Positions 22,816-39,114 of a stretch of DNA of 64,000 nt are shown piece after piece (the stretch's first letter is position 1; each line of letters begins with the position of its first letter). Below the pieces are notes generated by a model that worked only from the letters and a program-made list of their open reading frames with translations, did not search any database and had not been told where the DNA came from. The DNA lies in NCBI GenBank assembly GCA_031553675.1, contig JAVBLF010000084.1, forward strand, positions 375-64,374, read 5' to 3'. The DNA comes from Eubacteriales bacterium. Lineage in GTDB: Bacteria > Bacillota > Clostridia > Christensenellales > CALWSW01. A program made the position numbers and the translations under genes.

Positions 22816-23868
22816 TTATTCAAGAGGCACGGCCGCAGGGGCCGCGGCGATGTCGGTGTCGGTGTTGCTTTCGCGAACGACGAGCACGGCGCCACCAAAG
22901 ACGATGAGGGAGCCGATCGCCGTCCCGATCGTCGGGAAGGTGAGGAAGGGCGGCAAACAGAGAAGCACTGTGATCCAGATGCCGTATGTGATGTTGAGCA
23001 CCTGTGCCGTCGCGACGCCGCTGTATTCCATCGCGTAGTACCAGCAGATGTAGGAGATGCCGCTACAGGTCGAGCCGAGGAAGAACATGAGCCAGATGAA
23101 GCCCTTGTTGCCGATCAGCCCGCCCAGGAAAGGATAGGTGGCGGCGTTGACGTCAAAGCTGGCGATGAGGTGGCCGATGTAGCCGAAGTTTTTCGTGCTG
23201 AGGGAAATCACGACGAGCAGGATGATGTAGACGCCGATCAGGAAAGTGCGGCGCAGGGTCGTCGTCACGCTCGAACTGATGTCGCCACGCATCATGTTGT
23301 AGCCGAAGCAGCCCTCCATGGCGTAGCCGATCGCGCAGACGAAGGCGATCATATAGACGAAAAACGGTACCTTGCCACCCGAAAGGCCGTACATGCTCGC
23401 CGAGCCCACGATGCAGATGATGATGCCGAGGAATTTAAGCTTGGTCAAGCGCTCCTTGAACCAGATGACGGCGACGATCGCGCCGATCGCCGGAAAGGAT
23501 GCCGAGATCGACCCCGCGACGGAGGGAGAATAGCTGCCAGCGATCGCGTAGGGCACGGCGCCCAGAAGACCGGAAAAGAGGGCTGCCGGCAGGATGCCGA
23601 ACGACGATTTGCTGCACAAGACTGACACGTATTCCTTCAAAAGTCCCTTTTTGGCCAGGTAAGCGAGTTCGACGATCATGGCCAGGATGCAGTCGCACAG
23701 CCCGATCACGAGCGCCGTCGTGATGATCAAAAGCCATCCGCCCGCCGAATCGATCGAGCCCTGGTCGCCTGCGAATAAGTTCAGAATGCTGTAGAGAAAG
23801 ATCGTGTAGACGCCCCAGGTCAGGCCGGACGCCAGACCGTAAAAGACGCCTCTCTTGTTCTTCAACAT
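22816..23868 (-). CDS. DMT/EamA superfamily transporter
   Basis: About 10 TM helices, two-repeat structure, WFKERL, YAMEG, LNITYGIW. Confidence 0.8.
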   Translation of the reverse strand: MLKNKRGVFYGLASGLTWGVYTIFLYSILNLFAGDQGSIDSAGGWLLIITTALVIGLCDCILAMIVELAYLAKKGLLKEYVSVLCSKSSFGILPAALFSGLLGAVPYAIAGSYSPSVAGSISASFPAIGAIVAVIWFKERLTKLKFLGIIICIVGSASMYGLSGGKVPFFVYMIAFVCAIGYAMEGCFGYNMMRGDISSSVTTTLRRTFLIGVYIILLVVISLSTKNFGYIGHLIASFDVNAATYPFLGGLIGNKGFIWLMFFLGSTCSGISYICWYYAMEYSGVATAQVLNITYGIWITVLLCLPPFLTFPTIGTAIGSLIVFGGAVLVVRESNTDTDIAAAPAAVPLE

Positions 23869-23907
23869 GGGGTTGGAACCTCCTTTCGCTCTGGATTGTT
23901 GTGGGAC

Positions 23908-23966
23908 AGATCGGTGAAGAGATGCATGCCTTCATTATAAAAAACGCGTCGAGGCCCGACAAGGCC
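23908..23966 (-). promoter_or_regulatory. Promoter plus conserved leader motif, copy 1 (shared with the mop promoter)
   Basis: Minus strand GGCC-TTGTCG-17-TATAAT-GA...CATCTCTTCACCGATCT. Confidence 0.65.
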
Positions 23967-24135
23967 GTTGTCGTGCATTTCCCTTCATTTTCTGCGTTTT
24001 CCTGGGAAATGTCACAAAACGATATCGCGCACAAGGAAAGTTGCTGCTTTCCGGCGGCGCACAGAAGGGTTGCGCGCCGAAGACGGCGAAGTAAAAAGGA
24101 CGCGCTTCGCGCGACGGTCGAAAGGGGGAGTTGCC

Positions 24136-25524
24136 TTGCAGCCATCGGCGAACATGCAAGACGTTCGCGACCGGCAAAACATGGTCCGTTACAACTGGGG
24201 CTTTCGTTTTGCGCTCTGGTGCGCCATCTTGTGGAGCATCGCTTACCAGGCGATCGGTTTGCTTTTCGACAAGGCGCCCTTTGCCCCGGACAGCCCCGTG
24301 CCCTTTTCGCCCTTCGATTCGGCGCTCGTGATCGGTGCCTTTACTGCCTTCACGATCACACTGATCGCGCTCATTTGGCTGGCAGCTCTCGGCAAATTCC
24401 GCGATATGATCCGCACGGTTCGATACATGCCGCGGATCGCGCTGCTCCACCTCGTTTGCGCATGCGTCGGCGGCATTGTCGCGTTTGGCACCTACATGGC
24501 GGCCGGTTTGGTCGATACCATTTTTGCCGTCGCTTCGGTCATGTTCTACCCGATCATCGGGAGCGCCCTCGCTCGCATGCTCTGCCGCGAATCGATCTCG
24601 CGCAAATGCATGCTCGGCATCGCCGTGATCGCGTCGAGTTGCCTGATGATCTACCTGCCGAACCTCTTTTCCGGCGGAAGCGGGGGGAAATGGGGCCTCT
24701 TGCTCGGTTTGTTGGCCGGCGTTGGATGGGGCATCGAAGGCGCGCTTATGGGGCGGGCGCTCGACTTCACCGACCCGGACGTCAGCATCGGGCTCCGCTT
24801 TTGTTGTGAGGCGATCCTCTGGGCGATCGGCCTTCTCGTACTGGTTATCACCAAGCCACAGGCGCCCGCTTTGGCCTGCGCCATGGCCCTTCGCACCGAG
24901 CCCGTGTCCGCGCTCTTGCTCTTCGTGTGCGCCCTCTGTCTCGCCTTCAACTATATGTCCTGGTACCGCAGTTTTACGCTGATCGGCGTTTGTCGCGGGC
25001 TTGCCGTCAGCGACGCGTCCTGCTTCATTTCGGCCGTGTGCAGCATGGTGCTTCTCCCGACGATGCCCGGCTGGTCGACCATACTCGCGTCGATCGCGAT
25101 GCTCGTTGGCGTTTTCATCATCTACTTGGAGGGTGAGAGCGAAGACGGCATCCTGCGTTCCGCCCCATCGATCGAGCGGTTTTGCGAGGAAAGGCTCCCT
25201 CTCTATCCGGCGTCGGCGGACATCCCCATCAAAGCCCGCGCGCTCCAAATCGTCGCCATGGATGGCCCGATATGGGATTACGACATCGTCGATCGCCTGA
25301 TGCGCGAATACGGTGCCCTGGACAAGCCCATCCGGATCCGGAACCAATTTCGGCTCTGGATCATCGAAGCGGGCTGCGCAGGTCTCATTCGCGCGATCGA
25401 CGACAAGCAGGACGACGGCACCCGCTTTTCCGAGGGCAAGCTGCTCTGCCGTTACCGCCTGACGGAATTCGGCTACCGACGCCTTGCCGCGGTCGGCTTG
25501 CTCCGCGCAGAAGAGGTAGATTGA
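24136..25524 (+). CDS. DMT transporter fused to a C-terminal ~100-aa soluble (winged-helix-like) domain
   Basis: About 10 TM helices (GWGIEG, WYRSF..IGVCRG) then hydrophilic PIKARAL...WDYDIVDRLMREYG...YRLTEFG. Start is TTG 24136 after SD GGGGAG, or ATG 24154. Confidence 0.75.
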   Translation: MQPSANMQDVRDRQNMVRYNWGFRFALWCAILWSIAYQAIGLLFDKAPFAPDSPVPFSPFDSALVIGAFTAFTITLIALIWLAALGKFRDMIRTVRYMPRIALLHLVCACVGGIVAFGTYMAAGLVDTIFAVASVMFYPIIGSALARMLCRESISRKCMLGIAVIASSCLMIYLPNLFSGGSGGKWGLLLGLLAGVGWGIEGALMGRALDFTDPDVSIGLRFCCEAILWAIGLLVLVITKPQAPALACAMALRTEPVSALLLFVCALCLAFNYMSWYRSFTLIGVCRGLAVSDASCFISAVCSMVLLPTMPGWSTILASIAMLVGVFIIYLEGESEDGILRSAPSIERFCEERLPLYPASADIPIKARALQIVAMDGPIWDYDIVDRLMREYGALDKPIRIRNQFRLWIIEAGCAGLIRAIDDKQDDGTRFSEGKLLCRYRLTEFGYRRLAAVGLLRAEEVD

Positions 25525-25525
25525 C

Positions 25526-25639
25526 ATGCTGCAACACTGGATCGACCTGACCTACTCGCCCGCGATCTGCATCCTGATCGCGTTTGCCTTGGGCGGCATT
25601 TGTGCCTACCAGAGCTTTCAATTCATCACAAAGCTCTAA
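25526..25639 (+). CDS. Putative 37-aa single-TM small protein
   Basis: MLQHWIDLTYSPAICILIAFALGGICAYQSFQFITKL*. SD AGAGGT, starts 1 nt after the DMT stop and ends before the terminator. Confidence 0.5.
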   Translation: MLQHWIDLTYSPAICILIAFALGGICAYQSFQFITKL

Positions 25640-25662
25640 GCATCTGCAATCATCGCAAAAAC

Positions 25663-25702
25663 AAAAAGAATCCCCGGCCCCGTGCCTCGGATTCTTTTTT
25701 TT
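25663..25702 (+). terminator. Rho-independent terminator
   Basis: AAAAAGAATCC...GGATTCTTTTTTTT. Confidence 0.75.
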
Positions 25703-25753
25703 GCACACTGGCGCACCGCGCGGCCGACAAAACCCAACCTTCACAGGTGGATA

Positions 25754-25829
25754 CATAGATACGATCGATGCAAGTCCAAAGGCGCATCGACAAAGCGAAT
25801 TTCGAAAAGATTCGGGGATGCGTTATACT
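25754..25829 (+). promoter_or_regulatory. yedF operon promoter with upstream LysR-type T-N11-A palindrome
   Basis: CATAGAT-ACG-ATCGATG (25754-25770), then TTCGAA-17-TATACT. Confidence 0.45.
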
Positions 25830-25857
25830 GAATGAATAGTAGAAGGGAGGGGTTCTC

Positions 25858-26457
25858 GTGATTCAGATCGACGCTTTGGGCGATGTCTGCCCGATTCCCG
25901 TCGTCAAAGCCAAAAAAGCCGTCCAAAAACTGAATGGCCCCGGAACGGTCGAAATCCTGGTCGACAACGAGATCGCCGTTCAGAATCTGCACAAAATGGC
26001 GGATCAGATGGGCTGCGCGTTTCAGTCCGAGACGATGGGCCCTGATCGGTTTCGCGTCACCGTCACGGCGGGAGAAAACGACGCAGTAGAAGGGGAACTG
26101 CCCCAAGCCACACCCGGGCTTCAAAACACCGTGGTGCTCATTTCGTCCGCTCGGATGGGCGAGGGCGATGACGACCTGGGCAAAGTGCTCATGAAGGGCT
26201 TTTTGTACGCCCTGGGCCAACAGGACAAACTGCCCCAAAGCATCCTGTTTTACAACGGCGGCGCGGCGCTTACCTGCGAGGAATCCCCCGCCCTGGAAGA
26301 CCTGCAATCCATGGAAGCCCGGGGCGTCGAGATCTTGACCTGCGGGACCTGCCTCAATCACTACGGCCTGTCCGATCGGCTCAAAGTAGGCGCGGTTAGC
26401 AACATGTACGTCATTGTGGAAAAGATGACGCAGGCCGGCCTGATCGTCAAGCCCTGA
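25858..26457 (+). CDS. yedF: Sulfurtransferase-like selenium metabolism protein YedF (TusA/SirA + DsrE-like)
   Basis: DALGDVCPIPVVKAKKA, VDNEIAVQNL, MGEGDDDLGKVLMKGF, CGTCL, SNMY. Confidence 0.88.
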   Translation: MIQIDALGDVCPIPVVKAKKAVQKLNGPGTVEILVDNEIAVQNLHKMADQMGCAFQSETMGPDRFRVTVTAGENDAVEGELPQATPGLQNTVVLISSARMGEGDDDLGKVLMKGFLYALGQQDKLPQSILFYNGGAALTCEESPALEDLQSMEARGVEILTCGTCLNHYGLSDRLKVGAVSNMYVIVEKMTQAGLIVKP

Positions 26458-26460
26458 CCC

Positions 26461-26697
26461 ATGCGAGACAAGAAAGCGACGCTCGTCGTCACCTTTTCCA
26501 GCACGATGGATGCGATGGCGTGGGAAAAGCGCTGCATTGAGCAAAAACTGCCCGGCAGGTTGATTCCGGTTCCGCGGGAGATCACGGCGGGTTGCGGCCT
26601 GGCCTGGAAAGCCCCGCCTGAAGAGGAAGCGCGCCTGACACAAGCGCTGCGCGAAGCCGGCCTGCAAGGGTCGTCGCTATGCGTGATCGACATTTGA
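26461..26697 (+). CDS. DUF3343 domain protein
   Basis: VTFSST.DAM..EK...GRLIPVPREITAGCGLAW. Confidence 0.85.
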   Translation: MRDKKATLVVTFSSTMDAMAWEKRCIEQKLPGRLIPVPREITAGCGLAWKAPPEEEARLTQALREAGLQGSSLCVIDI

Positions 26698-26711
26698 GAC
26701 ACGGATGAAAT

Positions 26712-27527
26712 ATGAAGCATTGTATCGGCATCGACATCGGCTCGACCAGCGCGAAGACGATCGTGTTGGACGCACATGGGAGCATCTTGCACCGTTTGAT
26801 GCAGCCCACCGGATGGAGCAGCGTTGACACGGCGATGGACATCCGCGCGAAACTGGCGGATCTAGGGGTCAGCGCCGAAACCTCGACGGTCGTCGCGACC
26901 GGCTATGGCCGCGTGTCCGTTCCCTACGCAGACCAGTGCGTGACGGAAATCACCTGCCACGGCAAGGGCGCTTACCACCTGCACGAAGCGCCTACACTGA
27001 CGGTGATCGACATCGGTGGCCAGGACACGAAGCTGATCACGACGGAAAACGGCGTTGTGACGGACTTCGTGATGAACGACAAGTGCTCGGCGGGCACGGG
27101 CCGCTTTTTGGAGATCATGGCCAACACGCTATCGCTGCGTCCCGAAGAGCTCTGCGCGCTGGCCGCCGACGGCGGCGGCGTTTCCATCAGTTCCATGTGC
27201 ACGGTGTTCGCGGAGTCAGAAGTCATCAGCCTGATCGGCCGCGGTGAGGCAAAACACAACATCGCGTTTGCGGTGGTCGATTCCATCGTGAAAAAAGTCA
27301 CCTCCCAGGCCAGCCGCCTGCGTGTGAACGGATCGCAGGTCTGCTTGACGGGCGGGCTTTGTGGTTTTGCCTACCTGCGCGACTCGCTGTCCCGCGCATT
27401 GCGCGTCACCGTGCAGGCCCACGAAGACGGACGATACGCCGGGGCCATCGGCGCTGCGCGTTGTGCGGCTGCCCTCCGCGATGCAGCGCCGAAGCGGGAA
27501 GGGGGATCCGATGATCTACTTGGATAA
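26712..27527 (+). CDS. BadF/BadG/HgdC-type ATPase electron activator (double-cubane protein reductase)
   Basis: GIDIGSTSAK, TGYGR, EITCH, DIGGQDTK, MNDKCSAGTGRFLE, SSMCTVFAESE. Confidence 0.9.
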   Translation: MKHCIGIDIGSTSAKTIVLDAHGSILHRLMQPTGWSSVDTAMDIRAKLADLGVSAETSTVVATGYGRVSVPYADQCVTEITCHGKGAYHLHEAPTLTVIDIGGQDTKLITTENGVVTDFVMNDKCSAGTGRFLEIMANTLSLRPEELCALAADGGGVSISSMCTVFAESEVISLIGRGEAKHNIAFAVVDSIVKKVTSQASRLRVNGSQVCLTGGLCGFAYLRDSLSRALRVTVQAHEDGRYAGAIGAARCAAALRDAAPKREGGSDDLLG

Positions 27528-28644
27528 CGCGGCGACCACGATGCGAAAACCGGCACAGGTGATCGAAGCCGTCGTCGTCGCCATGGGGCACATGGGCAAC
27601 GCGTCGCGGGGCGCGCACAGCGGTGCCTTGCACGCGACCCGAACCGTCTACGACGCGCGTGTCAAGCTGGCCGCGCTTTTTGGATGCAAGGCGACGCACG
27701 TGGTCTTCACGTCCAATGCGACCGAAGCGCTTAACATCGCCATCAATGGCATCGTGAATCCCGGCGATCACGTGATCAGCACCGACCTGGAGCACAATTC
27801 CGTCCTGCGCCCGCTCTACCGCCTGGAAGCGGAGCGGTCGATCGCGCTGAGCTTTGTGCCGGCGAACGATGAGGGCGCGCTCGACTACGGCGATTTTGAG
27901 CGCCTGATCCGCCCACAGACGCGGGCGATCGTCTGCACACACGCCTCCAACCTGACGGGCTACCAGCTCGATCTGGAGCGCGTGGGCGCGATCGCCCGGC
28001 GAAACGGCTTGTTGCTGATCGTCGATGCGTCGCAGACGGCGGGCGCCACCCCGATCGACATGGAGGCCATGCAGATCGACGCGCTATGCTTCACCGGCCA
28101 CAAGGGGCTCATGGGACCGCAGGGCACCGGCGGCCTGTGCATCCGGGAGGGTTTGGAGATCCGCCCTTGGAAAGTGGGCGGATCCGGTGTGCAGTCCTAC
28201 CACAAATCGCAGCCGGACGCCTATCCGACGCGTCTCGAAGCGGGCACGCTGAACGGGCACGGCATCGCCGGACTGTCGGCGGCGCTGGATTTCATCGCCG
28301 AAACGGGGATCGATGCGATCGGCCAGCATGAACGGGGCTTGATGCGACGCTTTTACGAAGGCGTTTCTTCCCTCGAAGGCGTGACGGTCTACGGCGATTT
28401 TTCCACCGACAACCGCGCGGCTATCGTCGCCCTGAACCTGCGCGGCTACGACTCCAGTGCGGTATCCGATGAATTGGCTGAGAACTACGGCATCGCGACC
28501 CGACCGGGCGCGCACTGTGCGCCTCGGATGCACACCGCCTTGCGCACCAGCGAACAAGGGGCGGTGCGCTTCAGCTTTTCGTGGTTCAACACAGCGGAAG
28601 AAGTAGACGCGGCGATCGACGCCGTGCGAGAACTGGCAAGATGA
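27511..28644 (+). CDS. Class V aminotransferase, cysteine desulfurase/selenocysteine lyase family
   Basis: IYLDNAATT, EHNSV, DASQTAG, TGHKG (PLP Lys), EAGT, RPGAHCAP (active Cys). Confidence 0.9.
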   Translation: MIYLDNAATTMRKPAQVIEAVVVAMGHMGNASRGAHSGALHATRTVYDARVKLAALFGCKATHVVFTSNATEALNIAINGIVNPGDHVISTDLEHNSVLRPLYRLEAERSIALSFVPANDEGALDYGDFERLIRPQTRAIVCTHASNLTGYQLDLERVGAIARRNGLLLIVDASQTAGATPIDMEAMQIDALCFTGHKGLMGPQGTGGLCIREGLEIRPWKVGGSGVQSYHKSQPDAYPTRLEAGTLNGHGIAGLSAALDFIAETGIDAIGQHERGLMRRFYEGVSSLEGVTVYGDFSTDNRAAIVALNLRGYDSSAVSDELAENYGIATRPGAHCAPRMHTALRTSEQGAVRFSFSWFNTAEEVDAAIDAVRELAR

Positions 28645-28658
28645 ACGAGGAGGACACG

Positions 28659-29933
28659 ATGTCAAATTACGTAAAAATGTGGGAAGATCTCGGAATGGAT
28701 CTGGAAAACCACGACCTCTTGTGCCAAGTGCTGCCGACCGCGGTCGGCGACGTGTTTCTGACACAGGAAAACCGCCCGAAAGCCATGGATTTTTGGGATC
28801 TGGTCATTTCGGAGGTTCACGGCATACGGCCTGCCGAGTTGATCGAAGAGCAGAAAAAGGGACGCAAAGTATTCGGGACCTTTTGCGTGTATGTGCCCGA
28901 TGAAGTGGTCCTCGCCGCAAACGGGATCGTGACCGGACTCTGCGGCGGTTCGCAGTTTTGGGTCGCCGACGGCGAGACAGTCTTGCCAAAAAGCACCTGC
29001 CCGCTGATCAAGGCCTCCGTGGGCGCACGTTTGGGCAAAACCTGTCCCTTCTTCCGCATCGCGGACATGTACGTCGGCGAAACCACCTGCGACGGCAAGA
29101 AAAAGGCTTACGAGATCCTGGGCGAAGACGTGCCGATCTACGTCATGGACGTACCCCAGATGAAGCGCGACAAGGACATCCTGAAGTGGAAGGACGAAAT
29201 TGCGGAATTTGCCGGCCAAGTCGAGACCTTCACTGGCAACGCGATCACGTCCGAAAAGCTGGCCGAAGCGATCCGCATCGTCAACGAAAAGCGCAAGGCG
29301 CTGGCCCGCGTCTACGAATGCCGCAAGTCGGAATGCCTGCCCATCTCCGGCCGCGACGCACTGCTCATGATGCAGATCTCCTTCTTCGACGATCCCGTCC
29401 GTTGCGCGCAGATGTGCAACAAACTGGCCGATGAGCTGGAACAGCGCATCGCGGACGGCGTGTCGGTCGTGCCTGTCGGAACGAAGCGCATCCTCATCAC
29501 GGGTACACCGCTGGCCGTGCCGAACTGGAAGCTCCACAACATCATCGAAACCAGTGGCGCGGCTGTGGTTTGCGAAGAAATGTGCACCGGTACCCGCTAT
29601 TTCGAAAACCTGGTGGATGAGAGCAAAAATTCGCTCGACGATCAGTACATGGCGTTGTCCGAGCGCTACATGAAGACGAATTGCGCCTGCTTCACGCCGA
29701 ATACGGGCCGCATCGACGACATCCTTCGCATGGTCGAAGAATACAAGGTGGACGGCGTGATCGATTGCAACCTGAAATTCTGCTGCCTTTACGACACCGA
29801 AAAGTACGCCGTTTCGCGCGCGCTGAAAGAAGCGGGCGTTCCCGTGCTCAGCCTGGAAACCGACTACGCCGACACCGACACGGAACAGCTTCGCACGAGA
29901 ATCGGCGCCTTCGTCGAGATGATGCATGCATAA
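28659..29933 (+). CDS. Double-cubane [8Fe-9S] cluster protein (2-hydroxyacyl-CoA dehydratase D-component family reductase)
   Basis: GTFCVYVP, GLCGG, TCPLIK, CPFF, ETTCDGKKK, EEMCTG, NCACF, KFCCLY, QLRTRIGAF. Confidence 0.82.
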   Translation: MSNYVKMWEDLGMDLENHDLLCQVLPTAVGDVFLTQENRPKAMDFWDLVISEVHGIRPAELIEEQKKGRKVFGTFCVYVPDEVVLAANGIVTGLCGGSQFWVADGETVLPKSTCPLIKASVGARLGKTCPFFRIADMYVGETTCDGKKKAYEILGEDVPIYVMDVPQMKRDKDILKWKDEIAEFAGQVETFTGNAITSEKLAEAIRIVNEKRKALARVYECRKSECLPISGRDALLMMQISFFDDPVRCAQMCNKLADELEQRIADGVSVVPVGTKRILITGTPLAVPNWKLHNIIETSGAAVVCEEMCTGTRYFENLVDESKNSLDDQYMALSERYMKTNCACFTPNTGRIDDILRMVEEYKVDGVIDCNLKFCCLYDTEKYAVSRALKEAGVPVLSLETDYADTDTEQLRTRIGAFVEMMHA

Positions 29934-30852: not shown

Positions 30853-30877
30853 TCGTTCTTGCGATCGAAGGACGCAT

Positions 30878-31469: not shown

Positions 31470-33119
31470 TTACTGTGCGATCACGTTTCCGTTTTCGATT
31501 TGCTTTTTCACCAGGCTCCCGCCGCAGTATTTTTCGCGGAGCCTGGGTTTTTCGATCTTGCCTGTGGGATTGCGGGGCACCGTGTCGAAGATGATCCGGC
31601 GGGGGCGTTTGTAGCGCGGGAGTGCCAGACAGAAGTCCATGATGTCGGTTTCGGAGCAGACGGCGCCCGGCTTGAGCTCGATGATGGCCGCCGCGATCTC
31701 GCCGAGGCGCCGGTGGGCCAGGCCGATGACGGCCACGTCCTTGACCTGCTCGCTCTGTCGCAAAAAGTCCTCGATCTGGACGGGATAGAGGTTTTCGCCG
31801 CCCGTGATGATCACGTCTTTTTTGCGGTCGACGAGGAAGATGAAACCGTCCTCGTCTTCGCGTGCCATGTCGCCGGTGTGCAGCCATTCGCCTTTGAGAA
31901 CGGCGGCCGTCGCCTCGGGATCCTTGTAGTAGCAGGTCATCACCCCGGGGCCGGACACCGCCAGTTCGCCCACTTCGCCGTGCGGCACGGGGTTGCCGTT
32001 TTCATCGACGATGCGCGTCTTCCACCCGAAGCCCGCCTTTCCGATGGCGCCGATCTTGTGCATGTTTTCGATGCCGAGGTGGACGCTGCCGGGACCAATC
32101 GATTCGCTGAGGCCATAGTTGGTGTCGTAGTCGTGTTTGGGGAAGATTTTTTTCCATCGCTTGACCAGGCTGGGCGGTACAGGTTGCGCGCCGATGTGCA
32201 TCAGCCGCCACTTCGAGAGATCGTAGTTTTGCAGATCGACTTCACCGCTGTCGATTGCGTCGAGTATGTCCTGCGCCCAAGGAACCAGCAGCCAAACGAT
32301 CGTCGCGCGTTCCTGGCTGGCCGCCTCGAGAATCCACTGCGGGCTGGTGCCGCGCAGGAGTACGGCCTTGCTTCCGGCCAGGAGACTGCCGAACCAGTGC
32401 ATTTTTGCGCCCGTGTGGTAGAGCGGGGGGATGCAGAGAAACACGTCGTCGCGGGTCTGGCCGTGGTGGGCTTGCTCGGTGACGCAAGCCGATACCAGGT
32501 TGGCGTGGGAATGCAGGATCGCTTTCGGAAAGCCCGTCGTGCCGGATGAAAAGTAGACGGCGGCGTCGTCTTCGTCCCGCAATTTGATGTCGGGCGCTTG
32601 GGGAGAGCATGCTTCGGTCAGCGCTTCGTAGCTTTCGGCGAAAGAGGGGCAGTCCGCGCCGACGAAAAACCGTCTCGTCACAGCGGGGATCGCTTGCCGG
32701 ATCGCATCGATGCGCTCGACGAATTCCGGGCCGAAGAAGAGGGTGGTCACGTCGGCCAGGGCGAGGCAGTACTGGATTTCGTCGGCGGCATAGCGGAAAT
32801 TCATCGGGACGACGATCGCGCCGGACTTGAGCACGCCGAAGTAGATCGGCAGCCATTCGATGCAGTTCATCAACAGAATGGCCACGTTGTCGCCGCGTTG
32901 GACGCCGCGTTCCAGCAGGAGGTTGGCCACGCGGTTGGCTTTTTCGTCGAAGGCCGACCAAGTGATCTGTTTGCGGTAGGCGTGCTGGTGGCCGGTTTCG
33001 ACCAACGCAAATTCGCGCCAGTCAAACGAATCGTCGTAATGCTCGGGGTTGACCTCGACGAGGCAGACCTCCGGACCGTAAAGCTTCGCGTTGCGTTCGA
33101 GAATGGATGTGATGGGCAT
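31470..33119 (-). CDS. Class I adenylate-forming enzyme (acyl/aryl-CoA ligase)
   Basis: FSSGTTGFPK, YGLSE, WLHTGD, DRKKDVIITGGEN, PRNPTGKI. SD AAGGAG. Confidence 0.92.
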   Translation of the reverse strand: MPITSILERNAKLYGPEVCLVEVNPEHYDDSFDWREFALVETGHQHAYRKQITWSAFDEKANRVANLLLERGVQRGDNVAILLMNCIEWLPIYFGVLKSGAIVVPMNFRYAADEIQYCLALADVTTLFFGPEFVERIDAIRQAIPAVTRRFFVGADCPSFAESYEALTEACSPQAPDIKLRDEDDAAVYFSSGTTGFPKAILHSHANLVSACVTEQAHHGQTRDDVFLCIPPLYHTGAKMHWFGSLLAGSKAVLLRGTSPQWILEAASQERATIVWLLVPWAQDILDAIDSGEVDLQNYDLSKWRLMHIGAQPVPPSLVKRWKKIFPKHDYDTNYGLSESIGPGSVHLGIENMHKIGAIGKAGFGWKTRIVDENGNPVPHGEVGELAVSGPGVMTCYYKDPEATAAVLKGEWLHTGDMAREDEDGFIFLVDRKKDVIITGGENLYPVQIEDFLRQSEQVKDVAVIGLAHRRLGEIAAAIIELKPGAVCSETDIMDFCLALPRYKRPRRIIFDTVPRNPTGKIEKPRLREKYCGGSLVKKQIENGNVIAQ

Positions 33120-33196
33120 GTCGACATCTCCTTTGGATCGAAATTCTTTCGCCTGCAATGTCCGGAATCTCCGGACAATGGGGCTTGGCAAAGAAA

Positions 33197-33466
33197 CAAA
33201 AAAACTCTCGCCCCGACATAGGGCGAGAGTGACTCGCGGTACCACCTAATTTTGCAGGCCGCTCGCGCGGACCGCCTCTTCAAGTACGCGCACAAAGGTG
33301 CGGATACTCTAGTGTGCTAACGGGCACATCCGTCACAGCCTACTGGGCAAAACCGTTCGGTGTGAAGCTAGAGGATGTATTCGCGTCTATGTGCCATGCC
33401 CCTCTCATCGACCGGGAACTTTCTGTATGGCCTGAATGGACGTTACTTCTTCCTCATCGTGGCTTT
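33197..33466 (-). ncRNA. T-box riboswitch, Tyr (UAC) specifier
   Basis: Minus strand: stem I with AGTA, AG-bulge and GAUGAGAG loop, specifier GAA-UAC-A (codon 33377-33379), CCGTTA F-box, T-box AATTAGGTGGTACCGCG (33235-33251), terminator ACTCTCGCCC/GGGCGAGAGT plus U run. Confidence 0.9.
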
Positions 33467-33504
33467 TGGCGTATGCTTCGAGCTTGCGCTACGAAATTAA
33501 CGCC

Positions 33505-33533
33505 ATTATAAATCAAAGCCGCGATCTTGTCAA
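33505..33533 (-). promoter_or_regulatory. Consensus sigmaA promoter for the T-box/CoA ligase transcript
   Basis: Perfect TTGACA-17-TATAAT on the minus strand. Confidence 0.85.
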
Positions 33534-33562
33534 GCGGGAAATCCTGTAACGCCAGGGCACGG

Positions 33563-33757
33563 CTATTTTTCTTCGAGCTGCATTTCCACCTCGGCCATTT
33601 TTCCGCTCGCCAGTTCTTCCGGTATGTATACCTGTCCGCAACGCGGGCAACGCAAAAGCGAGGTGCTGAAGGCATGGCCGAGGTAGTTCAGCGTGGTCTT
33701 TCGCGCTTCCATTTCGACGTCGCAGAGACAGCAAAGAAAGCGTTCGTTTTCGTTCAT
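33563..33757 (-). CDS. Small CxxC...CxxC redox protein (DVU_1557-like family)
   Basis: CLC...YLGHAF...CPRCGQVYIPEELA.GKM.EVE..LE.K. ATGA-coupled to the upstream gene. Confidence 0.75.
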   Translation of the reverse strand: MNENERFLCCLCDVEMEARKTTLNYLGHAFSTSLLRCPRCGQVYIPEELASGKMAEVEMQLEEK

Positions 33758-36066
33758 GGCGTTTCCTCGATGGACATGCGGTGCAAGTAAACGTTGTGGA
33801 GCCGGAAGCTGCCTTCGCCCTCCGCTTCGTAGCACACCCAAAACGTGAGCTTTCCTTGCGCGAGGTGGGCAGTGATGCGTCCGCTTTCTTTGTCGAGTAC
33901 CTTTTTGCCGCTTTGTTCCGCATACGCGATGACGGCCTTGACGTTGTCTTCCACGACGAGATCGCGATCCATCTTGCGCTGGACGGCTTCGTCGATCGAG
34001 AGCGCAAACGAAAAGAGATCTTCTGGCGGCGGGACGGGCTCCTGTGCCAAAAAGGCATGGGCCAATTCCCGTTTCAGACGGTGGCGGTTGTGGCGGCGGG
34101 CCGTGAGCGTCGGCGGCGTGCGCGCGGCACGGTCTTCGTCCGGAAAGAAGATCGCATCAAGTACGTGGAGGGCGGGCTGGCCGTCTGCGGCAAAGTGGTC
34201 GCGGCAGTTCGTGCAGTAGGTGATCACAGCTCCGGCGTTTGGGCGGTAGGCCGATCGCAGAACCGTCTCGTAAAGGGTGCGGTCGGCGCCGTAAATGAGA
34301 CCGCCATAACCGCAGCAGCGTCCCTTGTCTTCTTCGGGGGTTTCCGACCATGCGAGTCCACACCGATCGAGAAGGCGGCGGACGCTCTGGCGCATGGACG
34401 GAAAATCCGAGCTCGCGCATGGATCGAACAATGTGGCCCGCTCACGGGTGTTTTGTGGGAACGCTTCACCTTCTTGCGCCTTCAATTCCCAGAGCGACAG
34501 GATTTGGATGTCCGGCAAGTGTCGTGCAAACACGTCGATGCAGGTGGGGCAGGGGAGGACGAAAGTCGGCCGATCCCATTCCACCCAGGCATCGCGAATG
34601 CGCGCCAACACGGCGGCATGGGATTCGCCTTCGGCAGCCCATTCGGCGGGCGCACCGCAACACGAGACGAGGAGCGCAGAGCTGCCGCCAAAGCGCTCGC
34701 GCATCCAAGTGAAAGTTTTTGCAACGTAAGCGGGATCGGAAGCACCCATCTGGCAGCCGGGAAAGAGGACGTAGCGCGCCCGTTTGCCTTCCGAAGCCGC
34801 GATCGCCAAATACGCGTCCTCGCTTTGGGCGTCCTTCATTTCATCGAGCCAATACGCGTAGATCGCGCTCGGAACTTGTTTCTTTTGCGCGAGAAGCTGT
34901 TTGCTTTCCATGTAAACGGCTTGGAAATCGATGCCCACCGGACAGACATCGCGGCAGCGCCCACACTGCGTACAGGACAGAATGGCGCGCAATGCGGGCT
35001 TGCCCGAAAGCGGGGTCGAATGCAGGGTGTCGCTCAGCTCGACGATGGCTTTCTTGGGGTCTTTGCGGTGGTATTGGAGCAAGTCGCAGGACTCGACACA
35101 GCGGTTGCACGCGCACAAAAGACAACGTTGCGCTTCGCCCTGCGCTTGATCCGCGTCGAGGGGGTTATCCGCAGGCGGGAGCGCGGACGGCTTGCGCGGC
35201 ACGCGGGCCGTGTCGGGGCGGTACACCGCTTGGCTGGCTGTGCTTTCCGCCGAGGATTCGCCCGGCATGCGGCCGACCTTGATGTAGGTTTCGATTTCGT
35301 AGGAGCGATCGCTCGCTTCTCGGATGCAGGAGAGCAGTTCGAGAGCCGGGTTGCGGACCGCGCCCGCAAAGAAAACGCCGGTTTGGGGTTCGGCACGATC
35401 GCCATCGGCGCGATTGCCATCGGCACGATCGCCATCGGCACGATTGCCATCGGCGCGATTGCCGAAAGTGGCGCCGCCCGCGCCCGTGCAGACGAGGATG
35501 GCGTCGAAGCCCTCGCATGGGAGATCGGCCATTTCGCACTTCGTTTCGATGTGTAGATATTTGAGCGCGTGCAGCGCCGCGATTTCGGCTTCAAACACGG
35601 AGGGCGAAAGTCGATCGCCCAGAAGCGGAAGCAGTTGACCGCCGAGCCGATCGCCCTTTTCGGCGAGCGTCGTGCGGTAGCCGCGCTGGGCGAGCTTGGC
35701 CGCCGCCGTCATGCCGCTGAGACCGCCGCCGACGATGAGTATGCGCTTCTTTTTGTCCGGAATGTAAAAGGGTTTCGGGGGCGTGGCTTGGCTGTCCTGC
35801 CACAAAAACCGCTCGATCCGGTTCAGCGCGACCGGATCGTCAACATCCGCGCGCGGGCAGGCGCTTTCGCAGGGGCGCGGACAAAGCTGCGATACGATGC
35901 CGGGGAAGACGGCGGACTTCGCGAAAGCGCGAAACGCCGCCGAAAAGGAGCCGATCTTGGCCCTTTCGATCATGTCTTTGACGTCGATACCGAGCGGACA
36001 CGCGCGCGCGCAGGGCGGCGGAGCGTCGGCGATGCAGTCGCGCAGGAGTTGATGGGGATCCAACAT
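33754..36066 (-). CDS. Pyridine nucleotide-disulfide oxidoreductase/4Fe-4S dicluster/CCG-domain protein
   Basis: C...PPCARACP, CPRPCESAC, GGGLSG FAD motif, CxxCxxCxxxCP, FPGCQ, SCCG, DPC, CCGYGG, YCTNC. Confidence 0.8.
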   Translation of the reverse strand: MLDPHQLLRDCIADAPPPCARACPLGIDVKDMIERAKIGSFSAAFRAFAKSAVFPGIVSQLCPRPCESACPRADVDDPVALNRIERFLWQDSQATPPKPFYIPDKKKRILIVGGGLSGMTAAAKLAQRGYRTTLAEKGDRLGGQLLPLLGDRLSPSVFEAEIAALHALKYLHIETKCEMADLPCEGFDAILVCTGAGGATFGNRADGNRADGDRADGNRADGDRAEPQTGVFFAGAVRNPALELLSCIREASDRSYEIETYIKVGRMPGESSAESTASQAVYRPDTARVPRKPSALPPADNPLDADQAQGEAQRCLLCACNRCVESCDLLQYHRKDPKKAIVELSDTLHSTPLSGKPALRAILSCTQCGRCRDVCPVGIDFQAVYMESKQLLAQKKQVPSAIYAYWLDEMKDAQSEDAYLAIAASEGKRARYVLFPGCQMGASDPAYVAKTFTWMRERFGGSSALLVSCCGAPAEWAAEGESHAAVLARIRDAWVEWDRPTFVLPCPTCIDVFARHLPDIQILSLWELKAQEGEAFPQNTRERATLFDPCASSDFPSMRQSVRRLLDRCGLAWSETPEEDKGRCCGYGGLIYGADRTLYETVLRSAYRPNAGAVITYCTNCRDHFAADGQPALHVLDAIFFPDEDRAARTPPTLTARRHNRHRLKRELAHAFLAQEPVPPPEDLFSFALSIDEAVQRKMDRDLVVEDNVKAVIAYAEQSGKKVLDKESGRITAHLAQGKLTFWVCYEAEGEGSFRLHNVYLHRMSIEETP
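35390..35464. repeat. Five tandem 15-bp repeats encoding G(N/D)RA(D/E)
   Basis: Units TCGGC(A/G)CGAT(C/T)GCC(A/G) x5, in frame. Confidence 0.9.
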
Positions 36067-36151
36067 GGAGTTTGCCTCGCTGTAAAAAAGCGCGAGAAAG
36101 TGCCCAATGGACACTTTCTCGATTGTTTCGCCTTGTGAAAACGTTCGATGC

Positions 36152-38980
36152 CTAGACGGGGTTTTCCTTGATGAAGTCGATCGCGTCGTAGAAGTCTTCG
36201 CCGAAGAAGTACTTCTCCTGAACGAGAGGCGTACCGGCGTTGGCGGCGTCCATCGCGGCCTTGACCTTGTCGGGCGTCGCGGGGAGCGTATAGATCCGCG
36301 CACCGGTGGCGTTGCCGATCGCATTGATGATCGACATGTGCCCGCCGGATTGGAAGCATTCGGACGCGCCGCCCGAGAATTGTGGGCCGTTGGGGCGCGG
36401 TGTCTCGTTGTACTCGACCGTGAAGTTTTCCCCGTCGGGGATGACGTCGATGTAGGGGAAGCCGGCACCGGCCAAGCTGGCGTGCTTCTTGTGGTCGGAA
36501 TAGTCTTCCGAGAGCGCATAACCGATGACGTGCTCCATGCCGCCGTAAGCTTGCCCGTCGACGGCGAGGTAGTTGCCGATCACGCCGACGTCGGCGACGC
36601 CGTGCATGGCGACCACTTTGACCTGACCGGTGGCGACGTCCACTTCGACTTCGGCCGCATATGCCGCGTAGGAGTGTTCGATCGTCGGATTGCCTTGGCC
36701 GGTGTTCGGGTCAAGCGGGGAAAGCTTCAGTTCGGCGGGCGTATCGTAGACGCCGGTGTATTTCGTCGGGATGCCTTCCGCGACCATTTCGTCGTAGCTG
36801 CGGAAACTGCCGTCCGGCTTGCGCATGGCGTCCATCAGTTTTTCCGCCGCGTCGAGCGTGGCGTTTCCCGCGTAGAAGTGCGAACGACTGGCGGCTGCGA
36901 CGCCGGTTGGCGGGCAAAGGCCGGTGTCGTTCATCACGAAACGGATCTGTTCGGGCGCCAGGCCGAGCGGGCGCAGCGCTTCATGTGTATGCACGAGCGC
37001 GCCGACGTCGCCACCCTGTCCGATCTCTTCCCAGGAATTGAAGTTCGTGACGCTGCCGTCGGGGTTGAGCTCCAGCGCGACCTCCGAATGGTCGATGGTC
37101 ATGCCGACCTGGTAAGCGCCGCACGCCACGCCGACGCCGTACTTTTTCTCGGCGGTCGAGGCTGCTTCGGCGTGTGCCTTAAGGGCCTGGTATTTCGGGC
37201 GCAGCTTGTCGAAGATGCCTTCCATGGGGTAGACGGACAAGATGTGTCCGGCGTTGGCGGTGTCGCCGGGGCGGAACACGTTCTGGTAGCGGAATTCGAA
37301 GGGATCGATGCCGGTTTTTTCGGCGAGCATGTCCATCAACGCTTCGGAAGCCGTCATGGTCTGCGGCGAGCCGAAGCCGCGGTAAGCGGTCGAAAAGGCC
37401 TGGTTCGAGAACGTTGCGCTGCTCAGGGCCATGACGTTGGGCAGCGTGTAGGGGAAGGCAAAAAAGCGCAAACCCGCATAGCAGAGGTCGGCCGCTAGTT
37501 CCGAGTAGGAGCCTTTGTCGTACATGATGTCGATTTCACCCGCGAGGAGTTTGCCCTTTTCGTCACAGGCGAGGCGGGCATTCGAATAGGACGCGGCGCG
37601 TTTGCCGGTGTAGTGCTGGTGTTCGGCGTAGGTGAAGGCGAGCGAAACCGGCTTGTCGAGCGCGAGGGCTGCCACGCCGACCAGCGCCGCCATACCGGGC
37701 GAAAAGGCGTAGCCAAAGCTGGCGCCCGCCGGGTTTTCGATGATGCGGATTTTGTCCATCGGGAGGCCGACGCCCGCCGCGATCAAGGCGATCGTCATGT
37801 GCAGGGCGTGGGACTTCATCTGGAGCGTGAGTATGCCGTCCGCGTCGACGTAGCCCTGGGCGACGTCCGGCTCGATGGGCAGATGCGGCTGGCGCGTCGT
37901 GTAGAAGCTGCCTTCGACGACGTGCGCGGCTTGCGGCACGACTTCGCGCGTGTCTTCGCCCTTCAAAAGAGGAATCCGGAAGAAGACATTCGGCACGCCG
38001 GGGTGAATTTCGAGAGCGTCTTCCGCCATAGCGTCGAGCGCTTCGAGGTATTCGGGCAGGTGCTCCAGCTCGACTTTGACGAGCTTGGCCGCTTCGCGCG
38101 CATGCTTTTCGGTGTCGGCAGCGACGAGGGCGATGATGTCGCCGCGGCGGAAGATCTTTTTGTCGGCGAGGATCGGGCGTTCGAAGCCGTCGGTCTTGGC
38201 GCGCGGATGGCCGAGCGGGAAGGTGATGCGGTTGATTCCCTTGACATCGGCTGAGGTAATGATGCGGTGGACGCCGGGGGCTTTTTCCGCCTCGCTGAAG
38301 TCGACGCTGAGCAGGTTGGCGTGGGAACAATCCGGCATGACAGGCGCGAGGAAGTAAATGTCCTCGGCTTTTTGGGCGACGTCGTTGCCGTAATCGCAGG
38401 TGCCCAGCACCTTCGAAAGCGCGGACGGGCGCGGGATGCGCGTGCCGTAGATCTTCTGGTCGGCCGGCATTTTCCACGCGATGTCTTCCATGGTGCATTC
38501 GCCGCGCATGACTTTTGCGGCGTCCAGCACGGCATCGACGAGCATTTTGTAGCCCGTGCAGCGGCAGGCGTTGCGGTGTTTGCGGAACCATTCGCGAATG
38601 TCTTCGCGGCTGGGGTTGTCGTTTTGATCCAGCAGTGCCTTGGCCGAGACGATAAAGCCCGGCGTGCAGAAGCCGCACTGAACGCCGCCGTGTACCATCC
38701 AGGCGAGCTGCAAGGGATGCAGGTGCTCCGCTGTCCCGAGGCCCTCGATCGTCACGACGCAGCTCGATTCTGCCACTGTCTTCATCTTGCGTACGCAGGA
38801 ACGGACGAGCTCGCCGTCCAAGATGACATTGCATGCGCCGCACTGGCCGGTGCCACAGCCGATTTTCGTGCCCGTCAAGCCGAGGCGACGCAATACGTCG
38901 GCCAGGCTGTCCCGTTCCGGATCGCAAAGGAAACTGCGTTCCGCGCCATTGATCTTGAGCGTTTTCCTCATTGTCGCCAT
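36152..38980 (-). CDS. mop: Molybdopterin-dependent aldehyde oxidoreductase (Mop type, xanthine oxidase family)
   Basis: Two [2Fe-2S] motifs GCGTGQCGAC and QCGFC...CRCTGY, GASFG, AYRGFG, EIGQG, catalytic GASE. No FAD domain. Confidence 0.88.
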   Translation of the reverse strand: MATMRKTLKINGAERSFLCDPERDSLADVLRRLGLTGTKIGCGTGQCGACNVILDGELVRSCVRKMKTVAESSCVVTIEGLGTAEHLHPLQLAWMVHGGVQCGFCTPGFIVSAKALLDQNDNPSREDIREWFRKHRNACRCTGYKMLVDAVLDAAKVMRGECTMEDIAWKMPADQKIYGTRIPRPSALSKVLGTCDYGNDVAQKAEDIYFLAPVMPDCSHANLLSVDFSEAEKAPGVHRIITSADVKGINRITFPLGHPRAKTDGFERPILADKKIFRRGDIIALVAADTEKHAREAAKLVKVELEHLPEYLEALDAMAEDALEIHPGVPNVFFRIPLLKGEDTREVVPQAAHVVEGSFYTTRQPHLPIEPDVAQGYVDADGILTLQMKSHALHMTIALIAAGVGLPMDKIRIIENPAGASFGYAFSPGMAALVGVAALALDKPVSLAFTYAEHQHYTGKRAASYSNARLACDEKGKLLAGEIDIMYDKGSYSELAADLCYAGLRFFAFPYTLPNVMALSSATFSNQAFSTAYRGFGSPQTMTASEALMDMLAEKTGIDPFEFRYQNVFRPGDTANAGHILSVYPMEGIFDKLRPKYQALKAHAEAASTAEKKYGVGVACGAYQVGMTIDHSEVALELNPDGSVTNFNSWEEIGQGGDVGALVHTHEALRPLGLAPEQIRFVMNDTGLCPPTGVAAASRSHFYAGNATLDAAEKLMDAMRKPDGSFRSYDEMVAEGIPTKYTGVYDTPAELKLSPLDPNTGQGNPTIEHSYAAYAAEVEVDVATGQVKVVAMHGVADVGVIGNYLAVDGQAYGGMEHVIGYALSEDYSDHKKHASLAGAGFPYIDVIPDGENFTVEYNETPRPNGPQFSGGASECFQSGGHMSIINAIGNATGARIYTLPATPDKVKAAMDAANAGTPLVQEKYFFGEDFYDAIDFIKENPV

Positions 38981-39054
38981 AAGGTCCTCCATTGTGTCGA
39001 AGGTGAAGGGTGGTTTTGGATGAAATTGGTCGAATGAGGGGCTTTTCAGAGAGA

Positions 39055-39114
39055 AGATCGGTAGAACAGATGAATAAGGTCATTATATCGCCAATGCATA
39101 GCGGTGACAAGGCC
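39055..39114 (-). promoter_or_regulatory. mop promoter plus conserved leader motif, copy 2
   Basis: Minus strand GGCC-TTGTCA-17-TATAAT-GA...CATCTGTTCTACCGATCT. Confidence 0.7.

Follow-up and report, generated by a model that had tools for sequence, protein, structure and literature searches.

Why should an acyl-CoA ligase stand behind a regulatory RNA that reads the charging of tRNA-Tyr, and do the genes around it belong to the same system? These questions are raised by positions 22816-39114 of a 64,000-nucleotide stretch (the window; G+C content about 60%) of contig JAVBLF010000084.1 of a Eubacteriales bacterium, an anaerobe of the gut type, referred to here as contig C91 of the host assembly (GCA_031553675.1; 2.56 Mb, 138 contigs, 94.8% complete). 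Gene content in the window was established from an open reading frame listing together with Pfam and NCBIfam scans. An original prediction, made from the letters alone, treated these 16 kb as a single salvage system in which an aromatic amine or aldehyde is imported, oxidized, activated to a CoA ester, and converted to tyrosine. The stretch consists of several independent transcription units and is not one system. The unit of principal interest contains one gene, encoding an AMP-forming acyl-CoA ligase (designated LIG; 31470-33119, minus strand), and is headed by a T-box leader. We propose, with a probability of roughly 0.6, that LIG is an arylacetate-CoA ligase acting on 4-hydroxyphenylacetate, that it is induced by uncharged tRNA-Tyr, and that it feeds a reductive carboxylation leading to tyrosine.

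The tyrosine T-box leader and the ligase gene

The leader (33216-33469, minus strand) matches the Rfam T-box model RF00230 over its full length (model positions 1-219), with 98.5 bits against a gathering score of 93 and an E value of 1.9e-20 over the whole window. It is the sole Rfam match in the window, and no other Rfam element is found at E ≤ 1 across 22000-40500. The cmscan alignment places the specifier codon UAC (Tyr) at 33377-33379, within GAA-UAC-A and ahead of the lower stem UCCUC, and the bulge UGGU at 33241-33244. This bulge pairs with a tRNA 3′ end of ACCA, that is, with discriminator A73, and the tRNA-Tyr(GUA) of the same genome has A73 and ends in A-CCA. The overlapping triplets ACA (Thr) and AAU (Asn) are excluded as specifiers because the bulge fits A73 of tRNA-Tyr but neither U73 of the organism's tRNA-Thr nor G73 of its tRNA-Asn; the bulge in the thrS T-box is UGGA. 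The rule used to read specifiers (codon, purine, lower stem, nGAGC) was checked on the T-boxes found elsewhere in the genome and gave the correct amino acid in all seven readable leaders of aminoacyl-tRNA synthetase and cysES genes, the genes themselves being confirmed by NCBIfam (UUC for pheS, GUC for valS, AUC for ileS, ACC for thrS, CCG for proS, GGC for glyQS, and UGC for cysE-cysS), the match at alaS being truncated and unreadable.

The transcription unit appears complete. A σ70-type promoter, TTGACA-17-TATAAT, at 33505-33533 (minus strand) matches the consensus hexamers at all 12 positions and starts 30 nucleotides past the stop codon of the preceding gene, which encodes a DVU_1557-family protein; three promoter-like sites are found in 33000-39400, against 1.4 ± 1.0 in shuffled sequences. 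An intrinsic terminator at 33198-33230 (minus strand) has an 11-bp stem followed by seven T residues; its stem, at 33230-33204, comprises 11 pairs, 7 of them GC, and the tail is TTTTTTTGTTT. In the cmscan alignment the 5′ arm of the terminator and the 3′ antiterminator strand share sequence, so that the two structures are mutually exclusive. A ribosome-binding site, AAAGGAG, lies 8 nucleotides 5′ of the ATG of LIG, and the unit is monocistronic, because the genes next downstream are convergent. By these features the leader is a classical transcription-attenuating T-box, predicted to be specific for tRNA-Tyr and to gate the single gene LIG; the tyrosine (UAC) T-box in front of the ligase was thus correctly recognized in the original prediction.

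LIG itself has 549 residues and belongs to the ANL superfamily, with matches to Pfam AMP-binding (PF00501; 1e-76, 259 bits) and AMP-binding_C (PF13193; 3.5e-8). Its best NCBIfam model is NF004837 (long-chain-fatty-acid--CoA ligase), at 409 bits against a cut-off of 476, and the best 25 of its 108 matching models all fall under their cut-offs. The PaaK model, TIGR02155, is absent among those 25, and the only alignment between LIG and the PaaK-like protein of the same genome shows 26% identity over 143 residues. The closest solved structures are those of FadD13 (5.7e-70), FadD5, feruloyl-CoA synthetase (4.3e-63), malonyl-CoA synthetase, and the 4-coumarate ligases. With such relatives, homology by itself does not reveal what LIG acts on. 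LIG may act like an arylacetate ligase but, by these comparisons, is not a member of the PaaK family, and it belongs to a tightly conserved family whose database label is only a generic one of the "long-chain-fatty-acid-CoA ligase" kind.

The ligase family, IOR, and other T-box-gated ligases

Among 185,579 species genomes scanned, at least 598 relatives of LIG were confirmed, and the best 80 of these loci, 67-72% identical to LIG, were analyzed. They span Clostridia, Negativicutes (Sporomusa), Smithella, Dehalococcoidia, Thermoguttaceae, and Coriobacteriia, and include Ruminococcus flavefaciens. In an even sample of genomes from the class of the host, LIG is present in 139 of 301 (E ≤ 1e-150); over the two sets, its orthologues are 60-72% identical. 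Open reading frames within 7 kb of LIG were clustered, a clustered LIG frame being obtained from 77 of the 80 loci. The recurrent neighbors at these 77 loci are the genes of an indolepyruvate-type ferredoxin oxidoreductase (IOR), iorA (19 loci, 577 residues) and iorB (17 loci, 189 residues), a Na+/solute symporter of the SSS family (18 loci, a membrane protein of 520 residues), a PaaK-like ligase (9 loci, 437 residues), and an ACT protein (9 loci, 143 residues), and the commonest order is SSS-LIG-iorA-iorB-paaK-ACT. Representatives of the two IOR clusters exceed their NCBIfam cut-offs (IOR_alpha, 740 versus 651 bits; iorB, 290 versus 230). At a further 29 loci, the best of the class sample, viewed with 1.5-kb flanks, iorA lies downstream in five and the symporter gene upstream in four. 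The association extends to whole genomes: iorA is found in 224 of 300 genomes of the class sample, in 134 of the 139 that contain LIG versus 90 of the 161 that do not (odds ratio 21; Fisher p 1e-17, not corrected for phylogeny).

A census of T-boxes at LIG loci was made with a core-motif regular expression, and the 17 specifiers that it yielded were read from the leaders by eye or regular expression and not from a covariance alignment. A T-box lies upstream in 12 of the 80 loci, six times before LIG and six times before an SSS-LIG pair, with UAC (Tyr) as the specifier in 11 and UUC (Phe) in one, L033. The core is also present upstream of LIG in 5 of the 29 further loci, all reading UAC, giving 17 of 109 loci examined, of which 16 specify Tyr and one Phe. 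Organisms in culture that carry the tyrosine T-box unit include Sporomusa ovata DSM 2662, S. acidovorans DSM 3132, and R. flavefaciens. When nine of the T-box loci were rescanned with Rfam, six reached the gathering score, L028, L033, and L039 being below it. In three loci (L086, L061, and L089) a single tyrosine T-box heads an operon of the form LIG/SSS-iorA-iorB(-paaK-ACT), with gaps between genes of −23 to 148 nucleotides, and in L033 the phenylalanine T-box heads LIG-iorA-iorB. The IOR in these operons is therefore switched on by amino acid starvation, which argues for its operation in the anabolic direction.

The host genome contains candidates for the other components that such a route would need. 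Its iorA scores 697 bits against the cut-off of 651, with iorB alongside, in a group at C57:2998-8309 (plus strand) composed of a ptb-like gene, iorA, iorB, a gene for a membrane protein of 220 residues, and buk. There are also a VorB-type OFOR (556 versus 399 bits) with β and γ subunits, a PFOR, eight genes of the class I/II aminotransferase family, and one of class IV. Chorismate synthase and leuB are present. No match was found in the host genome to PDH_N (tyrA), PDT (pheA), or ilvC, and none above the cut-off to trpB, although all four families gave matches in every one of 14 control genomes; since four unlinked markers are missing together, an assembly artefact is unlikely. The original prediction had named iorAB, an aromatic aminotransferase, and a missing tyrA as features to look for in this genome; iorAB and aminotransferases are present, and tyrA was not found.

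Taken together, these observations suggest the following sequence. Uncharged tRNA-Tyr would stabilize the antiterminator, so that LIG is made; LIG would form the CoA thioester of an arylacetate, with 4-hydroxyphenylacetate the likeliest, and cleave ATP to AMP and PPi; IOR, encoded elsewhere in the genome, would carboxylate the thioester to 4-hydroxyphenylpyruvate at the expense of reduced ferredoxin and CO2; and an aminotransferase would complete the synthesis of tyrosine. The ptb and buk genes beside the host iorAB would turn arylacetyl-CoA into the free acid with formation of ATP, and an unregulated AMP-forming ligase operating together with them would give a futile cycle, which tight gating by the T-box would prevent. 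In this scheme the substrate, the anabolic direction of IOR, and the prevention of futile cycling are what we infer from the arrangement and regulation of the genes.

LIG is one of several ligases under this form of control. Five of the 13 T-box matches in the host genome stand before CoA ligases, the other four being a T-box of 123.7 bits with the specifier CUC (Leu) before an ANL ligase of 556 residues (C71:3497-5481, plus strand); one of 104.6 bits with GUC (Val) before an XRE-cupin gene and a ligase of 563 residues (C72:19032-21895, minus strand); one of 108.3 bits, probably with AUC (Ile), before an XRE-cupin gene, a ligase of 568 residues, and cysK (C47:1043-3634, minus strand), where the posterior of the alignment is about 0.7 and the base following the codon is C and not a purine; and one of 49.2 bits, below the gathering score, with UGG (Trp) before a PaaK-like ligase (C94:22668-24241, minus strand), whose bulge, UGGC, fits G73 of tRNA-Trp. 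A tblastn search of the host genome with the four ANL ligases revealed no fifth at E ≤ 1e-15; thus every detectable ANL ligase of the host (4 of 4) is T-box-gated, in each case with a score above gathering. An additional T-box candidate returned by the regular expression on C123 was rejected, as it falls inside an open reading frame of 1318 residues.

The extent of the pattern in other genomes differs between the ligase families. The family linked to Leu (PRK12583-like) occurs in 150 of 300 genomes of the class sample, and in 16 of 20 of its loci (L144-L163) the coding strand bears a T-box that exceeds the gathering score, every specifier being a Leu codon (CUC in 15, CUG in 1); the family is a strong candidate for an isovalerate-CoA ligase. 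The Val-linked and probable Ile-linked ligases are 54% identical to each other, and their best model is NF047394 (462 and 438 bits, below a cut-off of 850), MbcS, the enzyme of Staphylococcus aureus that forms CoA esters of short branched-chain acids; this model does not describe LIG. The MbcS-like family is present in 56 of 91 genomes, with a T-box in none of 20 loci. The PaaK-like family linked to Trp is present in 193 of 301 genomes (1e-90), with a T-box core, by regular expression only, in 1 of 29 loci, where it reads UGG. The presence of the T-box therefore varies with family and lineage, which suggests that the salvage option is regulated differently across lineages, and the host is unusual in placing all its ligases under T-boxes.

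A different type of leader may be present in the same genome upstream of a paaK-ACT pair (C32:16640-16900, minus strand), where a promoter, a possible open reading frame of 30 codons (MTMRRRKSRLFAYSFSRF...), and a terminator-like hairpin precede paaK. Three Phe residues and one Tyr occur within nine residues of this frame. It may represent a leader-peptide attenuator that senses Phe and, if so, would supply the Phe member of the set of ligases.

It is possible to generalize from these cases to a mode of control in which the T-box specifier is a built-in substrate label for orphan acyl-CoA ligases: in anaerobes living by fermentation or scavenging of amino acids, the uncharged tRNA would induce an AMP-forming ligase, reversing the flux through oxidoreductases that are otherwise catabolic (IOR or VOR) and rebuilding the amino acid from its own fermentation acid. 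LIG would then be the first ligase family for 4-hydroxyphenylacetate serving Tyr, the isovalerate-CoA ligase of the leucine pathway described by Allison would be the Leu-linked enzyme, and the host would depend on such control for five amino acids. We regard the chances of this general scheme as evenly balanced.

The Mop operon, the transporters, and the remaining units

The genes that precede the LIG unit on the same strand form an operon for a molybdopterin aldehyde oxidoreductase. This enzyme, Mop (36152-38992, minus strand; NF045668, 1267 bits versus 1100), has the Pfam domains Fer2, Fer2_2, Ald_Xan_dh_C, and MoCoBD_1/2, and is followed by diclust_near_Sec, a pyridine-nucleotide-disulfide oxidoreductase/dicluster protein (33754-36066, minus strand, with its ATG at 36066; NF045663, 651 bits versus 530), and by the DVU_1557-family protein, a small zinc-ribbon redox protein (33563-33757, minus strand; NF045645, 81.4 bits versus 60), whose ATG overlaps the diclust stop codon (ATGA). 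A 13-bp hairpin with a T-rich tail at 36093-36121 (minus strand), between the Mop stop and the diclust start, may be an internal attenuator or a site of mRNA processing. Within the diclust gene, four tandem units of 15 nucleotides at 35390-35464 encode a repeated pentapeptide run of approximately (A/G)D(G)N/D-R (GNRADGNRADGDRADGNRADGDRAEP).

Both transporters of the stretch are DMT proteins with an EamA domain and, by Kyte-Doolittle analysis, 9-10 hydrophobic segments. DMT1 is encoded on the minus strand at 22816-23868 (Pfam EamA, E 1.9e-9) and DMT2 on the plus strand at about 24181-25524, its start codon being uncertain (E 1.3e-11). Ten hydrophobic segments occupy residues 10-321 of DMT2, and a hydrophilic, soluble C-terminal tail of about 125 residues follows them, in agreement with the original description of two transporters, one of them carrying a soluble domain; a metagenome scan gave just two relatives of DMT2, a number too small for statistics, and both retain this tail at 38-40% identity. 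The same account noted a promoter and leader motif common to the Mop operon and one of the transporter genes, and the partner is DMT1. The promoter of the Mop operon (TTGTCA-17-TATAAT; 39110-39082, 11 of 12 hexamer matches) lies with the common leader block in 39055-39114 (minus strand), and the corresponding region of DMT1, at 23908-23966 (minus strand), contains the blocks GGCCTTGTC..TATAATGA..CATCTnTTCACCGATCT as in the Mop promoter. Local alignment of 39087-39055 with 23939-23908 gives a score of 29, compared with 17.1 ± 2.2 for shuffled sequences, none of 300 of which reach 29, whereas the alignment of the DMT2 strand to the region upstream of Mop gives 20, a score reached by 29 of 300 shuffles. 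The two promoters share GGCCTTGTC (−35), TATAATGA (−10), and, in the early transcript, CATCTnTTC(n)ACCGATCT. Because these common blocks are split by unlike spacers, they look like conserved functional elements and not the result of a recent duplication. With up to two substitutions the downstream block occurs at six sites in the genome, and only those at Mop and DMT1 have a promoter context. A generic repeat search with a 10-nucleotide seed did not reveal the motif, which emerged from the targeted local alignment, and a search of 40 relatives for the promoter motif gave four single matches with one mismatch, about as many as a control with the pattern reversed. DMT1 and the Mop-diclust-DVU_1557 operon constitute a second unit, probably co-regulated through this motif, which probably is a common operator or an element of the 5′ leader. 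This motif is the only genuine connection within the upstream part of the proposed pathway, and the ligase is not involved in it.

In 18 of 18 other neighborhoods in Clostridia the order Mop-diclust-(DVU_1557 family) is constant, and the genes that usually follow encode proteins of about 240, 444, and 147 residues, a PaaK-like protein of about 420 residues (12 of 18), and proteins of about 347 and 303 residues. The cluster in the window is a minimal version with three genes, lacking these accessory genes. The 18 neighborhoods contain no LIG orthologue, DMT gene, YedF gene, or double-cubane reductase gene. A second apparent pairing of Mop with a ligase, in L130, was rejected, as its ligase shares 21% identity with LIG and the genes after it encode an acyl carrier protein (ACP) and a phosphopantetheinyl transferase (PPTase). 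The diclust_near_Sec protein is found above its cut-off in 12 of 300 genomes of the class. A second copy in the host (929 bits), at C58:3333-5606 (minus strand) on a short contig, implies that the genome has a second Mop-type cluster.

The relatives of the transporters point in another direction. Homologues of DMT1 were found in none of 40 relatives at 1e-15, and a search of 299 further genomes of the class gave none for DMT2 (E ≤ 1e-20). Two metagenomic relatives of DMT2 adjoin a DMT1-like gene, one of them (L108, 1456-5483) together with two genes of the MttB family, and on C123 (44919-48837) of the host a DMT1 paralogue, 51% identical, is followed by an MttB-like gene. From these three loci there is a weak indication that the DMT pair may be tied to the metabolism of methyl groups or quaternary amines rather than of tyramine.

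DMT2 and the other plus-strand genes are further, unrelated neighbors. An operon at 25858-29933 encodes YedF (TIGR03527, 217 bits versus a cut-off of 110), an activase of the acyl-CoA-dehydratase type (TIGR00241, 221 versus 125), a cysteine desulfurase like EF2568/SclA (TIGR01977, 417 versus 377), and a double-cubane-cluster reductase (NF040772, 494 versus 350), all by NCBIfam; these genes do not recur near LIG or Mop in the other neighborhoods examined. YedF resembles a sulfurtransferase of selenium metabolism, and the genome also encodes tRNA-Sec. This operon is followed by arr, for NAD(+)--rifampin ADP-ribosyltransferase (30358-30852; 203 bits versus 130), and by an open reading frame of 163 residues with no match in the NCBIfam scan, the only one applied to it. 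Beyond the Mop operon lie a KdgR/IclR-type regulator gene with its own terminator-like hairpin (39245-40012) and, judged by eye from their translations, eda/kdgK-like frames; three frames at 15090-19729, just to the left of the DMT pair, appear similarly to be UroD/MtaA-like.

Alternative explanations and relation to known systems

The proposal that the whole 16 kb is one salvage system, in which a DMT protein imports tyramine or 4-hydroxyphenylacetaldehyde, Mop oxidizes it to 4-hydroxyphenylacetate, and LIG activates the acid, draws on the adjacency and common orientation of the Mop operon and LIG, with only the 30 nucleotides mentioned above between them, on the motif common to Mop and DMT1, and on the presence of an adenylating ligase (the PaaK-like, DVU_1553-type protein) in many Mop clusters elsewhere, which the cluster in the window lacks. 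The linkage is nevertheless not conserved: no homologue of Mop, diclust, the DVU_1557-family protein, DMT1, or DMT2, nor of YedF, the activase, the desulfurase, the double-cubane reductase, arr, or the IclR regulator, occurs within 7 kb of LIG at the 80 loci (E ≤ 1e-5), and the 18 Mop neighborhoods are equally devoid of LIG and DMT genes, their lone ANL ligase being the distant one of L130. Any transcript running on past the Mop genes would still be faced with the T-box terminator, and LIG has a promoter of its own with consensus hexamers; the common orientation therefore does not couple the two units, and it has been shown not to be functional evidence. The DMT relatives that were found adjoin MttB-type methyltransferase genes and not genes for amine or aldehyde metabolism, and the window yielded no gene for amine deamination. 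We consider the integrated pathway very unlikely. Of the original prediction, the ligase under a tyrosine T-box and the IOR-based supply of tyrosine are retained, the latter on the strength of the recurrence of iorA and iorB beside LIG, their co-occurrence across genomes, and the UAC specifiers; its upstream half, with import by a DMT protein and provision of 4-hydroxyphenylacetate by Mop, is not.

For LIG as a 4-hydroxyphenylacetate-CoA ligase, several observations have to be set against those given above. Its substrate is deduced only from regulation and gene context; the solved structures nearest to it belong to fatty-acyl, feruloyl, and 4-coumarate ligases; and to our knowledge the characterized arylacetate ligases are of the PaaK type, a family other than that of LIG. 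No T-box was found at 92 of the 109 LIG loci, and iorA is not adjacent to LIG in 58 of 77; nor is T-box control general among the other ligases, given its absence from the 20 MbcS-like loci and its single occurrence in the 29 PaaK-like loci elsewhere. The iorAB genes of the host sit in an operon (ptb-iorA-iorB-membrane protein-buk) that looks catabolic, that is, ATP-yielding, and has no T-box, and the best host match to the symporter of the family is only 26% identical and is located elsewhere in the genome. The absences of tyrA, pheA, trpB, and ilvC come from an assembly that is incomplete and fragmented, to the extent given at the outset. The expectation that genomes with a T-box-gated LIG would lack tyrA failed, since tyrA is present in four of the five other genomes with a tyrosine T-box before LIG, and its retention indicates that the route is one of salvage and not a replacement of the shikimate branch.

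LIG might instead serve the supply of aromatic amino acids with other or broader acids, taking phenylacetate as well, or acting on 3-(4-hydroxyphenyl)propionate or p-coumarate in a reversed aryl-lactate route. The Phe specifier of L033 suggests that the specificity of LIG may exceed 4-hydroxyphenylacetate, and the host has neither a detectable pheA nor a ligase under a Phe T-box; the feruloyl-CoA and 4-coumarate enzymes are among the closest solved homologues, and the PaaK-type ligase encoded in LIG clusters could be the true arylacetate enzyme. However, iorAB, the recurrent neighbor, acts on pairs of arylacetyl-CoA and arylpyruvate, 16 of the 17 specifiers are for Tyr, and no genes of the aryl-lactate dehydratase type recur beside LIG in the 77 loci, so that we judge such a broader or different substrate range to be rather unlikely. 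Yet another interpretation takes LIG for an ordinary ligase of fatty or other acyl groups, with the T-box a remnant or having an unrelated role, as in membrane or secondary metabolism during starvation. Its best family models, which are for "long-chain-fatty-acid--CoA ligase" and FadD-type enzymes, and the many orthologues with neither a T-box nor an adjacent iorAB agree with this. Against it, the leader is intact in promoter, specifier, bulge, and terminator, UAC recurs at 16 loci in lineages as distant as the Negativicutes, and iorA accompanies LIG in almost every genome that has LIG. The second ligase family is equally consistent, with Leu in 16 of 16 specifiers, a pattern that would be difficult to account for if the ligases did not each supply the amino acid named by the T-box. 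An ordinary ligase is, in our estimation, most improbable, and a role for LIG in the activation of 4-hydroxyphenylacetate is preferred.

If the assignment is correct, its consequences extend beyond this genome. The T-box names its amino acid, and each pair of T-box and ligase is therefore a directly testable prediction of substrate: 4-hydroxyphenylacetate for Tyr, isovalerate for Leu, isobutyrate for Val, 2-methylbutyrate for Ile, and indoleacetate for Trp. The LIG and Leu-linked families are each present in about half of the Clostridia sampled, and the best NCBIfam models for them are generic fatty-acid-CoA ligases that they match below cut-off. Metabolic models of gut and rumen organisms would be altered in their predictions of auxotrophy and of cross-feeding on branched-chain and aryl acids, the fate of 4-hydroxyphenylacetate, a precursor of p-cresol, would be affected, and a new class of gene would be brought into the T-box regulon.

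T-box riboswitches, of which tyrS is the paradigm, control genes for the biosynthesis and transport of amino acids in Firmicutes. The LIG leader shares their architecture, with pairing of specifier and anticodon, a UGGN bulge, and mutually exclusive terminator and antiterminator, but its target is an acyl-CoA ligase and not an aminoacyl-tRNA synthetase, a canonical biosynthetic enzyme, or a transporter. A connection between T-boxes and acyl-CoA ligases was not found in the main texts of the literature searched, although supplementary lists of T-box regulons, such as those of Wels 2008 and Sun 2013, might include such genes. The terms "CoA" and "acyl" do not occur in the main text of Wels et al. 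2008 (PMC2494555), a search for terms in PMC3766115 did not find a T-box and ligase combination of the LIG type, and the phrase "4-hydroxyphenylacetate-CoA ligase" has no occurrence in the literature searched. The chemistry and the T-box mechanism are thus both known, and it is their combination that we could not find in print, earlier listings being possible.

The Mop operon corresponds, by NCBIfam family names, to the Desulfovibrio-type cluster DVU_1551-1559, and its Mop, diclust_near_Sec, and DVU_1557-family genes are ordered as in the 18 other Clostridia neighborhoods; the copy in the window differs in being minimal and in having a promoter motif in common with a DMT gene. For the T-box-gated ligases the relevant precedents concern reductive carboxylation. 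According to PMC7356843, which cites the work of Allison (1962-1971), rumen anaerobes carboxylate isovalerate to give Leu, isobutyrate to give Val, and phenylacetate to give Phe. That work, as described there, consists of physiological labeling, and a gene-level assignment of the activating ligases or of their regulation was not found in the literature searched; the specifiers of the host ligases (Leu, Val, probably Ile, Trp, and Tyr) lie within the set of amino acids that can be so obtained, and LIG orthologues occur in R. flavefaciens, as noted above. At the level of genes, PMC13285125 reports that AMP-forming arylacetate-CoA ligases beside IOR in Bacteroides suggest an anabolic (biosynthetic) role. 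The chemistry proposed here is the same, and LIG orthologues are found in clusters with both iorAB and a PaaK-type ligase. That paper names or assays a phenylacetyl-CoA ligase (PaaK) and further arylacetate ligases, none of them from the LIG family, and T-boxes are not mentioned in it; LIG, in contrast to the PaaK type, is an ANL enzyme of 549 residues resembling FadD and 4-coumarate ligases, and its gating by a T-box, here and at 16 other loci, adds evidence from regulation in favor of the anabolic direction, of a kind which that paper lacked.

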